From: a bacterium
GTDB lineage: Bacteria; Sysuimicrobiota; Sysuimicrobiia; Sysuimicrobiales; Kaftiobacteriaceae
DNA: 22,625 nucleotides
Direction of reading: 5' to 3'
Assembly (NCBI GenBank): GCA_044868695.1
Contig: JBIOWP010000104.1
Coordinates: 1-22,625 of the forward strand
Shown: positions 3,031-16,423 of the stretch, piece after piece
Position numbering within the stretch: position 1 is the first letter of the stretch
How the letters are laid out: each line of letters begins with the position of its first letter
Program-made: the position numbers and the translations under genes
Notes under the pieces: generated by a model
What the model was told of the DNA's origin: nothing
Databases searched by the model: none
Seen by the model: the letters and a program-made list of their open reading frames with translations, nothing else

Positions 3031-3416
3031 AGTAGTGGTTCAGTCTGGACTGTCATCCGTCTTCTGTTGGGCGAGTGGAAGGCCGCTCGGAGGTTCCCGC
3101 AGCAGCTCGGGACGGACCAGAGGGCCGGGCGGCGGGCGAGTGGGGACGGCCCCGAGCGGAGATTGGAGGGCGGCAACCCACCTGGCAGGCCGTGAGGTCG
3201 GGATCGCCCCAGCCACGTCGCGGGAACGCAGCAGAGGCCGTCGTGTTCCGTCGCATATTGGCAGGCGAGCGCGCCAGGGAGCGGGAGGCCTGCACATCCA
3301 AGCCGAAGCCGCCCGACTCGACGCGAGGGACCGCCCCCGAGCAGCCAGCCGCCCGTCCATGCAGACGACCCACTCCCCAGAAGAGGGTAGTGGGTATTTC
3401 AAACTGACCCACTACC
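3031..3416. mobile_element. Non-autonomous element (MITE) copy 1 with IS1-like termini; composite with a 31-bp mini-element at 3386-3416
   Basis: Left end AGTAGTGGTTCAGTCTGGA, right end TTCAAACTGACCCACTACC (imperfect inverted repeats). Perfect 8-bp direct repeat GGGCTGGG at 3023-3030 and 3417-3424. 3031-3377 aligns closely by eye with 15973-16378. No transposase. Confidence 0.88.
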
Positions 3417-3437
3417 GGGCTGGGGACCTTGCCCCGT

Positions 3438-6116: not shown

Positions 6117-7082
6117 ATGAAGATCACCCGCTACCTTCCCGACAGCGTTGAGGACGCCGCGACCGAGTCTCTCCCCCAGCTGCTGGCCCAGGACGGCGGG
6201 GCGATGTGGGTGGATATGACCGGGCCGACGGAGGATGACCTCCGGGTCCTGCGGGAGGTCTTTCGCTTTCATCCCCTGGCGATCGAAGACACGCTGAAGC
6301 AGCGCCAGCGGCCGAAGATCGAGGGATACGAGGGGTACTTCTTCCTGACGATCCATGCGGCGCAGGCCGGCCGGGAGCGCGACGCGCGGCTGGCCTGGGA
6401 CGAGATCGATATTTTCTTCGGCCCGCGCTACGTCGTGACCGTGCACCCACGGCCCGTCCCCGCCCTGGAGGAAGCCCGCGCGCGCCTCGGTCACGCGCTG
6501 CCGGCGCTGCGCGCGGGAGCGGACTACCTGCTCTACACCGTCGTCGATACGGCGGTCGACACCTACTTCCCCGTCATTGACCGGATCGACGCCGCGCTCG
6601 AGCGGTTGGAAGACCAGCTGTTCCGCAAACCCACCGCGCGCGCGCTGGACCATATCTTCGCGCTCAAACGGACCCTCCTGCAGATGCGGCGCGTGGCCGC
6701 GCCGCTCCGGGACCTCCTCAACGGCTTGACCCGGCGTGACGAGCCGATGATCCGGGTGCAGACGCTGGTGTACTTCCGCGACGTGTTTGACCACCTGCTG
6801 CGGATTACGGACATGATCGATACACACCGCGATCTCATCGCGGGGGCGCTCGATATCTATCTGTCGGTGATCAGCAACCGGCTCAACGAAGTGATGAAGG
6901 TGCTGACCGTGGTCACGGCCGTCTTCGCGTCGTTGGCCGTCATCACCGGCGTCTACGGGATGAACTTCCAGCGCGCCTATCCGGCTTTTGACTGGCCGTA
7001 CGGGTTTGCCGCGGTGCTGCTCGGCATGGCGGGCGTCACCGGCGCCATGCTGGCGCTCTTCCGCCGGCAGGGGTGGCTGTGA
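6117..7082 (+). CDS. corA: Magnesium/cobalt transporter CorA
   Basis: FHPLAIED, QRPK, NEVMKVLT, signature YGMNF between two C-terminal TM helices. Start ATG 6117 (the track's 5625 start overlaps the peroxiredoxin). Confidence 0.96.
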   Translation: MKITRYLPDSVEDAATESLPQLLAQDGGAMWVDMTGPTEDDLRVLREVFRFHPLAIEDTLKQRQRPKIEGYEGYFFLTIHAAQAGRERDARLAWDEIDIFFGPRYVVTVHPRPVPALEEARARLGHALPALRAGADYLLYTVVDTAVDTYFPVIDRIDAALERLEDQLFRKPTARALDHIFALKRTLLQMRRVAAPLRDLLNGLTRRDEPMIRVQTLVYFRDVFDHLLRITDMIDTHRDLIAGALDIYLSVISNRLNEVMKVLTVVTAVFASLAVITGVYGMNFQRAYPAFDWPYGFAAVLLGMAGVTGAMLALFRRQGWL

Positions 7083-8449
7083 CCGGTTACCCGCAGTTCG
7101 GATTCGTGACCCCGCAGAACATGGGGCTGCTGACCGACCTGTACGAACTCGTGATGGCCGACAGCTACCTGCGCCATCACATGAACGAACCGGCCACGTT
7201 CGACCTCTTCATCCGCGGGCTCCCGGAGCACCGTGCCTTCCTGGTCAGCGCCGGCCTGGAGCCGGTCCTCTGCTACCTGGACGAGCTGCGTTTTGGCGAG
7301 GAGCAGATCGCGTACCTGGCCGGGCTGCGGATCTTTAGCGATGCGTTCCTGGACTATCTGCGGACCTTCCGGTTCCACGGCGACGTCTGGGCCATTCCGG
7401 AAGGCGAGCTATTCTTTCCTCCGGAGCCTCTCCTGGAGATCACCGCTCCCCGGATCGAAGCGCAACTGGTCGAAACCTTCCTGCTCAACACGCTGACGTT
7501 CCAGGTCATGATCGCCTCGAAGGCCAGCCGGGTGGTGCTCGCCGCATCCGGCCGCGGCGTGGTGGACTTCTCGCCCCGGCGCGACCATGGGGCCGACGCC
7601 GCGCTGAAGGTGGCCCGCGCCTCCTTTATCGCGGGCTGCGTCGGCACGTCGAACGTGCTGGCCGGCATGGAGTACGGTATTCCCGTTTACGGAACAATGG
7701 CCCACTCGTATGTCATGTCGTTTCCGGACGAACTGTCCGCATTCCGCGCATTCGCGCGCGATTTTCCCGGGAACGCCATCCTTCTGATTGATACCTACGA
7801 GACGATGGGGGGAGCCAGGAATGCCGTCACGGTCGCGCGGGAGATGGCCGCGCGCGGGCAGCGGCTCCGCGGTGTCCGCATCGACAGCTACGACACCATC
7901 GAGCAACTCGCCGCGCTCAGCCGGCGGGTGCGGGCCATCTTCGACGAGGCGGGGCTCCCCGACACCCAGATCTTCCTCAGCGGAGACCTCGATGAGTACC
8001 GGATCGCCGAACTGCTCGCCCACGGGGCCGCCGCCGGCGCGTTCGGCGTCGGCACCCGCATGGGGACCTCGGAGGACGCACCGAACCTGGGAGGCGTCTA
8101 CAAGCTCGTCGAGGACGCCGGCGGACCCAAAGTGAAGCTGTCCACCGGCAAGGCGACGCTCCCCGGCCGCAAGCAGGTCTGGCGCGTCCGCGGCGGCGAC
8201 GGCGGCATCTCCGACACCATCGCGCTCCGGAACGAACCGCCCCCCACCGGCGCCGCGCCGCTGCTGGCGCCGGTGATGACCGGCGGCCGCGCGGTCCGGG
8301 CGGAAACGCTGCAGGCGATGCGCGACCGCTGCCAGCAGCGGCTGGTGGGCCTTCCGACGGCGCTGCGCGACCTCCGCGGCGCTCCGCCGCAGGTCAGGCT
8401 GAGCGGTCAGCTGCAGGTGCTGCGCGACGCGATGCAGGGAAAGAAATAA
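7079..8449 (+). CDS. pncB: Nicotinate phosphoribosyltransferase
   Basis: LLTDLYELVM, GTSNV, GTMAHS, LLIDTY, GVRIDS, FGVGT, GGVYKL, K.TLPGRKQV. GTG 7079 overlaps the corA TGA (alternative start 7073). Confidence 0.96.
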   Translation: MTGYPQFGFVTPQNMGLLTDLYELVMADSYLRHHMNEPATFDLFIRGLPEHRAFLVSAGLEPVLCYLDELRFGEEQIAYLAGLRIFSDAFLDYLRTFRFHGDVWAIPEGELFFPPEPLLEITAPRIEAQLVETFLLNTLTFQVMIASKASRVVLAASGRGVVDFSPRRDHGADAALKVARASFIAGCVGTSNVLAGMEYGIPVYGTMAHSYVMSFPDELSAFRAFARDFPGNAILLIDTYETMGGARNAVTVAREMAARGQRLRGVRIDSYDTIEQLAALSRRVRAIFDEAGLPDTQIFLSGDLDEYRIAELLAHGAAAGAFGVGTRMGTSEDAPNLGGVYKLVEDAGGPKVKLSTGKATLPGRKQVWRVRGGDGGISDTIALRNEPPPTGAAPLLAPVMTGGRAVRAETLQAMRDRCQQRLVGLPTALRDLRGAPPQVRLSGQLQVLRDAMQGKK

Positions 8450-8458
8450 CCGCGAACG

Positions 8459-8491
8459 CTATCTCTTCTTCTTGGCCTTCTTCTTCGCCAC
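8459..8491 (-). CDS. Putative 10-aa lysine-rich micropeptide MAKKKAKKKR
   Basis: GTG GCG AAG AAG AAG GCC AAG AAG AAG AGA TAG; SD GGGAGG (8503-8498) 6 nt before GTG. Confidence 0.6.
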   Translation of the reverse strand: MAKKKAKKKR

Positions 8492-8539
8492 AGGGGACCT
8501 CCCTTCGCGCACGCGCGCGGGGTAAGAGGCTCGTGGTGG

Positions 8540-8569
8540 CTACCGCTTCTTCTTTTTCTTCTTTGCCAC
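8540..8569 (-). CDS. Putative 9-aa lysine-rich micropeptide MAKKKKKKR
   Basis: GTG GCA AAG AAG AAA AAG AAG AAG CGG TAG; purine-rich SD-like AAAGGGGGGAG 4 nt before GTG. Confidence 0.6.
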   Translation of the reverse strand: MAKKKKKKR

Positions 8570-8754
8570 TGAGCTCCCCCCTTTACGCGGCTGCGCTCGT
8601 GATGGCGCCGAGGTGAGTCCCTCAGCGCGCCGGTGCGCGTCCGTGCATCATCCCTCGCCGCACCGGACGGTTCGCGTCCGCGTTGACTGAACATGCGACA
8701 TCGATGTGCGTTTTTCCTGCTGCACGAAGAATATTTTTGATAGAGTGAGTGGCG

Positions 8755-9576
8755 ATGACACCGGTGACCATTCGACCGATCACCGACGCCGCGGCGATGC
8801 GCGCGGTGGAAGAGTTGCAGCGTGATGTGTGGGGAATGCCCGACCTCGAAATCGTTCCCGCGCATCAATTGAAGGCGGCGGTCGGCGCAGGCGGCGTCAT
8901 CCTCGGCGCCTTCGACAGCGACGGGACGCTCGCGGGATTCTGTTACGGGTTTGTCGGATTGCGCGACGGCCGGCTGCTCTTCTACTCTCACATGGCAGGT
9001 GTGCGCCCGGAACACCAGGACCGCGACATCGGGTTCCTCCTCAAGCGCGCGCAGCGCCAGGAGGCGCTCGACCGCGGACTGGAGCGCATGATGTGGACCT
9101 TCGACCCCCTGCAGAGTCTCAACGCGTCGTTCAACCTCCACAAGCTGGGCGCGACGGCAGCGCGCTACTATGTGGATTACTACGGCGAGATGCCTGACGC
9201 GATCAACCGCGGCCTGCCCAGCGACCGGCTGGAGGCGGACTGGTGGCTGCGCGATCCGCGCGTAGACGCCGGGACCGCCACGCCCCGGTCGTGGCCGGAC
9301 GCGCGCGCAGTCCTGGCCGGGACCGCGCGGGACGGTCTCGTCCACCCGGGACGCCCGGTGCTGGAGCTGGACGACCCCATCCTGCGCCTTGAGATCCCCG
9401 GCGCGCGGGGTTCGGACGCTGAGACCGCGCACGCGTGGCGGCTGGCGTCACGTCAGGCGTTCCTTCATTACTTCGGCCGCGGATACAGCGCGGTGGACTA
9501 CGTCGCCTCCCGCTCGCAACCGACGGGATCATACATTCTGGAGCGCCACGCCACGGCGCGGCGGGACACGCCGTGA
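8755..9576 (+). CDS. GNAT-family acyltransferase (likely D-amino-acid N-succinyl/acyltransferase partner of NSAR)
   Basis: LQRDVWG, YSHMAGV, IGFLLKRAQR, WTFDPLQSLNA.FNL.KLG, SDRLEADW; GTGA-coupled to the OSBS/NSAR gene. Start 8755 or GTG 8749. Confidence 0.88.
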   Translation: MTPVTIRPITDAAAMRAVEELQRDVWGMPDLEIVPAHQLKAAVGAGGVILGAFDSDGTLAGFCYGFVGLRDGRLLFYSHMAGVRPEHQDRDIGFLLKRAQRQEALDRGLERMMWTFDPLQSLNASFNLHKLGATAARYYVDYYGEMPDAINRGLPSDRLEADWWLRDPRVDAGTATPRSWPDARAVLAGTARDGLVHPGRPVLELDDPILRLEIPGARGSDAETAHAWRLASRQAFLHYFGRGYSAVDYVASRSQPTGSYILERHATARRDTP

Positions 9577-15972: not shown

Positions 15973-16378
15973 AGTAGTGGTTTAGTCTGGACTGTCGTCC
16001 GTCTTTTGTTGTGCTAGTGGAAGGCCGCTCCGCTCTCGGGGCGGCTCACCCGCCGGGCGTAGCGCTCGGCGGCCTTCTACCAGCCCCACGGGAGGGGACT
16101 CGCAGAAGCTCGGGACGGACCAGAGGGCAGGGCGGCGGGCGAGTGGGGCGGCCCCGAGCGGAGATTGGAGGGCGGCAACCACCTGGCAGGCCGTGAGGTC
16201 GGGATCGCCCCAGCCACGTCGCGGGAACGCAGGAGAAGCCGTCGTGTTCCGTCGCATATTGGCAGGCGAGCGCACCAGGGAGCGTGAGGTCTGCGCATCC
16301 AATCCGAAGCCGCCCGACGCGACGCGAGGGGCCGCCCCCGAGCAGACCGCCGCCCGTCCATTCAGACGACCCACGACC
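15973..16378. mobile_element. Non-autonomous element (MITE) copy 2 with IS1-like termini
   Basis: Left end AGTAGTGGTTTAGTCTGGA, right end TTCAGACGACCCACGACC. Perfect 8-bp direct repeat AACCAGTT at 15965-15972 and 16379-16386. Same orientation and body as copy 1, plus ~60 bp extra. Confidence 0.9.
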
Positions 16379-16393
16379 AACCAGTTCACACCC

Positions 16394-16423
16394 TTGACAG
16401 CCCGAAGGAGGCCATGCTACGCT
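16394..16423 (+). promoter_or_regulatory. Sigma70-type promoter TTGACA-18-TACGCT with extended -10 TG
   Basis: TTGACA 16394-16399, TG 16415-16416, TACGCT 16418-16423. Confidence 0.6.

Follow-up and report, generated by a model that had tools for sequence, protein, structure and literature searches.

Two lysine-rich open reading frames (ORFs) of nine and ten residues lie in tandem on the minus strand of the 22,625-nt stretch of DNA analysed here (the window), between pncB and a divergent gene. Their size and repetitive composition raise the question of whether they are genes at all and, if so, what such short products might do.

Two micro-ORFs with separate translation signals

The arrangement proposed by an earlier, sequence-only reading of the window is confirmed: two minus-strand units, each consisting of a Shine–Dalgarno (SD) sequence, GTG, an Ala codon, a Lys run, an Arg codon and TAG, lie 48 nt apart (Table 1). 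Unit 1 reads GTG GCA AAG AAG AAA AAG AAG AAG CGG TAG and is directly preceded by GGGGGGAG-CTCA; unit 2 reads GTG GCG AAG AAG AAG GCC AAG AAG AAG AGA TAG and is directly preceded by AAGGGAGGT-CCCCT. The synonymous differences listed in that reading (Ala GCA/GCG, Arg CGG/AGA and one Lys AAA) are all present. The SD duplexes reach −11.8 kcal/mol for unit 1 (top 18% of 755 long ORFs) and −12.5 kcal/mol for unit 2, as scored against a generic anti-SD, used because the 16S end of this genome was not found.

The 2.59-Mb genome (67% G+C) holds four such ORFs: the window pair, MAKKKAKKKR on contig C152 and MAKKKKAKKKKMKM on contig C45. The peptide of micro-ORF 2, which recurs unchanged on C152, is also found unchanged in relatives. 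Genome-wide, four closed ORFs of 8–16 codons have a Lys content of 55% or more; all four have an SD of −9 kcal/mol or lower, and no such ORF was obtained in any of five block-shuffled genomes. When the equivalent test was applied to 17 other residues, SD-led cases appeared for Arg alone (2/22).

Table 1. Features of the micro-ORF locus, with positions in the window
Feature	Position	Strand	Basis
Micro-ORF 1, MAKKKKKKR, 9 aa	8540..8569	minus	sequence, syntenic conservation, shuffles
Micro-ORF 2, MAKKKAKKKR, 10 aa	8459..8491	minus	sequence, syntenic conservation
SD of unit 1, GGGGGGAG	8574..8581	minus	sequence, duplex energy
Small GC hairpin (8519-8506), then SD of unit 2, AAGGGAGGT (8505-8497)	8497..8519	minus	
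Predicted 5′ leader, ~110 nt, several short GC hairpins	8582..8692	minus	alignment, consensus fold
Predicted sigma-H-type promoter: −35 GCAGGAAAA (8720-8712), 12-nt spacer, −10 GTCGCAT (8699-8693)	8693..8720	minus	
Weak hairpin (−10.7 kcal/mol) over the stops of ORF 2 and pncB	8440..8468	minus	z −1.98
pncB, convergent neighbour (context only, not part of the unit)	7073..8449	plus	Pfam PF17767, PF04095
Divergent neighbour, 275 aa, no Pfam match, followed by an enolase-superfamily gene	8749..9576	plus	

Conservation at orthologous loci

Loci within the family were selected solely by homology of a neighbouring gene (pncB or an HD-domain gene). An intact, SD-led ORF was present at 19 of 21 pncB-syntenic loci, both misses being contig ends (one of these genomes has a unit at the end of another contig). 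It was likewise intact at 14 of 16 HD-domain loci, the remaining two genomes having it at a distance of 3.4 kb or on a different contig. A third locus class has the unit upstream of an aldehyde-dehydrogenase gene; the paralogues found there (L022, L018, L323 and L326) have Met-rich tails (MKM, MGKM, MGM), unlike the others. All 22 family genomes searched contain between one and four copies.

Start, stop, SD and frame are kept at the orthologous loci, and indels comprise whole codons. A pattern search of related genomes for conservation and synonymous bias, as the sequence-only reading had suggested, returned ORFs in which start, stop and Ala codons vary and the peptide pattern is kept. The phylum concerned is most likely CSP1-3 (Sysuimicrobiota), in which PMC11962464 places the slow-growing soil family 13-1-40CM-64. 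Across this phylum, 43 of 94 genomes match a pattern that allows gaps of any phase, and all 77 start sites in the matches (counted by hand from the table) open an in-frame closed ORF. A looser pattern, applied to 10 of the 51 negative genomes, revealed SD-led forms of 14-30 aa in all 10. The unpublished genomes G062 and G033 are both among the 43, and G062 contributes one of the 53 units described below; no conclusion rests on them. The exact decapeptide pattern occurs in 11 GTDB stretches, nine of which share flanking genes with the relatives of the window.

The tandem arrangement is common to the window and genome G002. The hairpin and SD found ahead of unit 2 recur in G002, before its second unit, and in genus g2, before its only unit, and spacer remnants in other genera suggest that the tandem is an old duplication followed by differential loss.

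Coding signature

Across 24 genomes, 53 distinct units were compared; they begin with ATG (29) or GTG (24) and end with TAA (29) or TAG (24). Codon 2 specifies Ala in 51 units, with all four Ala codons in use. The products contain solely K, A, R, M and G: 378 of the 543 residues are K and 109 are A, and the Lys:Arg ratio is 378:22. Lys is encoded by AAG 367 times and by AAA 11 times (97% and 2.9%), compared with AAA shares of 24.8% genome-wide, 13.5% in the ribosomal-protein operon and 7.6% for Lys before Lys, although these codon counts overstate the significance because related genomes are not independent. In A+T-rich metagenome hosts, runs of eight or more A occur in 2 of 39 distinct matches, against 19.6-35 expected. 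A curated subset of 20 contains no run of nine or more, against 15.1 expected; 15 loci had been dropped from it by judgement (ORF ends, duplicates and doubtful cases, including one with a 9-A run), and further loci for too few neighbouring codons. As described in PMC4363877, iterated AAA codons let ribosomes slide and AAG keeps the frame, so that a scarcity of A-runs is what would be expected if the frame is kept through the Lys runs. The AAG bias could partly come from avoidance of slippage by DNA or RNA polymerase.

Syntenic conservation, the codon pattern and the shuffles together support selection on the peptide, as had been proposed from the synonymous differences, over a simple (CTT)n microsatellite. 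That the ORFs are chance products of such a repeat has a negligible probability in our view. The sequences are indeed of low complexity, some database matches are the ends of longer ORFs or lack an SD, and a match in Rhodothermales has none, but syntenic conservation and the shuffles refute this explanation. From these sequence comparisons, the ORFs are very probably real translated genes.

A predicted sigma-H-type promoter

The promoter, the leader of ~110-115 nt and the two copies on other contigs were absent from the earlier reading and were found here. The predicted promoter (Table 1) lies just downstream of an A/T-rich tract, and a sigma-70 promoter scan of 8300-8900 found none. Its elements GCAGGA-A and GTCG-A are invariant across 13 aligned orthologues, and it is the top genome-wide match of a matrix trained on relatives, a result that is partly circular. 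According to PMC4754846, the sigma-H consensus is (A/G)(A/C)AGG(A/G)(A/T)3-N11-12-(A/G)(A/G)(A/C)GAA(A/T). When T is also allowed at the second −10 position, as in a table of the same article, the window promoter has one mismatch to this consensus relaxed at one position; its −10 box deviates from the published GAAT core. Two mismatches at most were counted for 36 of the 53 units, as compared with 2 of 400 random and 13 of 300 low-G+C windows, and for 25 of 29 units of a further set, mostly from other families.

When membership of the sigma-H regulon was assessed, both −35 and −10 boxes 11-12 nt apart and a sigH gene in the genome were found; sigH scores above the TIGR02859 cut-off in 20 of 22 genomes. 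The protein is 98% identical between two genera. Genome-wide, the motif gave 40 matches against 15-21 in shuffles, a modest enrichment. One gene of this genome bearing the same motif is spoVS, which is sigma-H-dependent in Bacillus. We know of no sporulation in phylum CSP1-3. Sigma-H-like sites were also seen in this genome (G000) upstream of genes for Ku, an FtsE-resembling ABC ATPase, an AMIN-domain amidase and an S-layer protein.

Predicted leader RNA and terminator

A GCGC-N4-GCGC hairpin directly 5′ of the SD is retained in relatives. In a consensus fold of the leader from 13 orthologues the stems are retained, with changes on both sides in 2 of 19 pairs and a covariation term of 0.11; the window leader itself folds no better than shuffles (z −0.59), and an Rfam scan of the window gave no match. 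A switch that sequesters the SD was considered, and inspection by eye did not establish one.

Downstream, a terminator-like hairpin is found 3′ of 47 of the 53 units, a count made without shuffle control. At the position of the weak hairpin of Table 1, relatives have a strong terminator (−36 kcal/mol, z −5.4 in G015), which is largely lost in this genome. With a weak hairpin over the pncB stop in place of the terminator, the unit transcript may run antisense into pncB; as the pncB stop lies only 9 nt beyond that of unit 2, both transcripts may overlap.

A promoter, structured leader and terminator of its own would also suit a small RNA that base-pairs with its targets through the (AAG)n tract. 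Alternatively, the antisense strand might be the functional one, since it reads as a Phe-rich, FFFLAFFFA-like leader in the 51 of 53 units printed. We regard both proposals as very improbable: no start, stop or SD is conserved in the antisense frame, sense starts and stops switch among valid codons only, indels are whole codons and Rfam gave no match.

Gene neighbourhoods

Neighbours vary between locus classes and are mostly convergent. At the window locus pncB converges on the unit, and the view that these are not classical leader peptides is upheld, as is that of a stand-alone, unannotated peptide-coding family. The divergent neighbour is presumably acetyl/succinyl-transferase-like. A 341-aa antisense ORF (8407-9432) crosses the unit in another frame and is probably a shadow of the plus-strand gene. 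A test for RiPP precursors found no modifying enzyme or exporter kept beside all copies, the neighbours varying among locus classes.

Attenuator leaders of the pheL, trpL and hisL type combine a short ORF, a run of one codon type and a downstream hairpin, and the micro-ORFs share all three. They differ in that three locus classes lack a co-oriented gene, each tandem copy has an SD of its own and the neighbours have no relation to lysine. In a search for attenuation, no co-oriented lysine-related operon was found, the pncB, HD-domain and MlaD genes all being convergent.

A related, rather unlikely explanation is that translation itself is the function: a structured mRNA with strong SDs and slow Lys runs would hold ribosomes, sense Lys-tRNA or control a neighbour in cis, the peptide being a by-product. 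Lys runs are slow even on AAG, according to PMC4363877, the leader hairpins are conserved, and same-strand genes lie downstream at the aldehyde-dehydrogenase locus and in CPR. However, the next gene converges at the pncB, HD-domain and ltaE/MlaD loci, with a terminator between them in relatives, and there is no lysine-pathway gene among the annotated neighbours. Nor would this explanation account for Ala at position 2 in nearly all units, the avoidance of A-runs, or orthologues in which xAKK repeats dilute the Lys run.

Longer orthologues and H1-like tails

At the ltaE/MlaD locus, products are 10-12, 20 or 27-30 aa long (MAAKKAAKKATAKKTSAKKTAKKAARKKR is an example). The CSP1-3 orthologues of 27-30 aa are made of xAKK repeats; the window peptides hold one xAKK unit at most and no Pro. 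In composition, the long forms resemble histone-H1 tails. The longer orthologues have no significant match in Pfam (PF07382 included) or NCBIfam, where the best E is 0.91, or in PDB, the 9-10-mers being too short to scan. The nearest named Atlas cluster is HC2 (score 0.86, 20% of members), which is a lead only, and unnamed Atlas clusters match longer relatives at 0.93-0.94. One longer relative is held by the Atlas letter for letter, and an exact look-up of six in a collection of 15 billion proteins found none.

Lys/Ala low-complexity composition is common to the micro-ORF family, Hc2 (PF07382), the tails of AlgP and PhaF and the Rv3852 family, and repeat number varies in Hc2/AlgP/PhaF-type proteins as it does here. 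In AlgP and PhaF, lysines of the KPAA-repeat tails mediate binding to DNA or RNA (PMC9239181, PMC12818456). H1-like proteins, however, exceed 100 aa or carry the tail on a folded domain, whereas the micro-ORF products here are 9-14 aa long, have no Pro and come with their own promoter and terminator and with several loci per genome. The micro-ORF product would resemble an H1-like tail in its action, yet it does not qualify as a member of those families.

Elsewhere in this genome, contig C60 (L376:1274-1474, minus strand) carries an SD-led ORF of 67 aa whose N-terminal half is rich in Lys, Arg and Ala and whose tail is rich in Pro and Met. It gave no family match and is absent from the protein collection; it may encode a similar but longer basic protein.

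Occurrence beyond the phylum

The pattern MAKKK[AGSTR]KKK[KR]-stop matches 89 metagenome stretches (69 distinct) of 27-68% G+C. At least eight of the 89 are C-termini of longer ORFs (L049, L056, L090, L120, L127, L077, L106 and L122), and several matches have no SD. Tandem SD-led copies recur at loci L053 and L074. One of 10 neighbours looked up placed the decapeptide pattern beside a Micrarchaeia gene, and further loci look archaeal, judging from TATA-like boxes and GAGGTGA SDs. The Rhodothermales match, which lies beside an N gap and is probably antisense to a signal peptide, was set aside. Poly-Lys ORFs of 19-25 aa, mostly SD-led and with A-runs capped at 7-8, were noticed on A+T-rich phage contigs (L141, L145, L162, L187, L195, L198, L207 and L213).

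In CPR, hpf-secA or polyamine genes follow the micro-ORF on the same strand. The order murB - micro-ORF - hpf (PF02482) was found at 5 of 42 annotated metagenome loci, all CPR-type and four with secA next, and in two GTDB genomes. Polyamine or deoxyhypusine genes lie downstream at 3 of the 42 loci, and one locus reads secA - micro-ORF - rpsI. At the CPR-type loci L110, L116 and L123, genes for arginine decarboxylase, AdoMet decarboxylase, spermidine synthase and deoxyhypusine synthase follow the micro-ORF directly. The strict pattern occurs in 6 of 251 CPR genomes of one order, four times stand-alone and twice inside longer genes; a loose pattern matches 23 of 151 in the phylum, and the two matches that were inspected lie within longer ORFs. 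In its exact form, the short peptide is therefore patchy in CPR. Because the sequence is simple and the search selects for identity, the decapeptide may be shared across domains by descent or by convergence.

These loci bear on the possibility that the product is a ribosome-bound microprotein with a defined site, perhaps on resting ribosomes. Such a role is unlikely in our estimation. Bacterial bS22, bL37 and bTHX and eL41 are fixed, Arg-rich sequences encoded in one copy. The micro-ORF products resemble them in being very short, basic and easily overlooked by gene callers, and lie behind strong SDs; the hpf and rpsI arrangements also favour this reading. Against it, the micro-ORF family varies in length and copy number and is dominated by Lys, and longer relatives have no PDB or Pfam match. 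Annotated CSP1-3 loci lie in no ribosomal-protein operon, except for two that, by eye, are upstream of infC/rplT-like genes. Co-regulation with hpf was not supported in the family, where 4 of 20 hpf genes lie within two mismatches of the promoter motif. The earlier suggestion of a ribosome gap filler thus fits poorly, because orthologous loci encode 9-30 aa and genomes hold 1-4 copies.

Possible function

Length is free to vary, charge is conserved, copies are several, and the neighbours are unrelated and mostly convergent; these features fit a product whose effect depends on dose and that acts in trans by charge. Of the functions proposed earlier, condensation of the nucleoid or of RNA is the best match, given the xAKK repeats of the longer orthologues. 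Our best explanation, for which we put the chances at about even, is a stand-alone two-gene unit with sigma-H-type transcription whose 9- and 10-residue, H1-tail-like products would bind RNA or DNA by charge in trans during slow growth or stationary phase. Sigma-H would transcribe the unit and both micro-ORFs would be translated. Methionine aminopeptidase would remove Met before Ala2, leaving peptides with a charge of about +7; these would bind nucleic acid non-specifically, at a dose set by copy number and tandem duplication. Against the charge-based role, a free peptide of 8-9 residues may be short-lived and bind weakly, and the placement in CPR, ahead of hpf-secA or polyamine genes, would also suit a function in cis or one linked to the ribosome.

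Other needs that the peptides might serve were considered. Replacement of polyamines is weakened by the presence of spermidine synthase (speE) in 5 of 5 genomes searched, and a missing nucleoid protein was rejected, HU being present in 5 of 5. An improbable alternative is a store or sink, that is, a nitrogen or lysine reserve, an acyl-group sink or a polyphosphate counter-ion. A Lys content of ~70%, the predicted stationary-phase promoter and the slow growth of these deep-soil lineages (PMC11962464) would suit it, as would the association of AlgP with polyphosphate granules (PMC9239181). Conversely, PPK1 was not found in 4 of 5 genomes searched, this one included, nor PPK2 in any of the 5, and a transferase-like neighbour occurs at one locus class only.

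It is tempting to speculate further, and doubtful as the extension is, we hold it to be a genuine possibility, that the oligolysine peptides are encoded polyamine or protamine analogues. Switched on by sigma-H in slow-growing soil bacteria, they would condense or shield RNA, ribosomes and DNA in starvation, and the same decapeptide would be used in CPR and DPANN by descent or convergence. If so, they would be the smallest nucleic-acid-packaging proteins known, with 8-9 residues after Met removal.

Novelty and further elements of the window

The earlier description of the locus as an undescribed system holds insofar as no published account of these oligolysine micro-genes was found in full-text literature, the coverage of which is without most subscription papers and supplements; the class is, however, wider than this genome. 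GMSC calls ORFs from 30 nt (PMC11364881), and catalogues may therefore list these micro-ORFs without function. New here are the shortest forms, the occurrence of several loci in one genome, the promoter of sigma-H type and, at a single locus, a series of products from 10 to 30 residues. If translated, the micro-ORFs would rank with the shortest prokaryotic protein genes that stand alone and are not leaders; several copies are maintained across the phylum, although they fall below the limits of gene callers and escape tryptic proteomics. The length series ties the peptides to H1-like tails and makes the minimum length of a charge-based nucleic-acid binder testable. The promoter indicates under which condition to search, and synthesis of the peptides is trivial.

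The window also contains two copies (3031-3420 and 15973-16400; core 94% identical) of a highly structured intergenic repeat of 350-430 nt with a fixed left end. The scan of the window against Rfam gave no match to it. Whole or partial copies lie on 14 other contigs of the genome, and the repeat is possibly a non-autonomous mobile element or an undescribed RNA.
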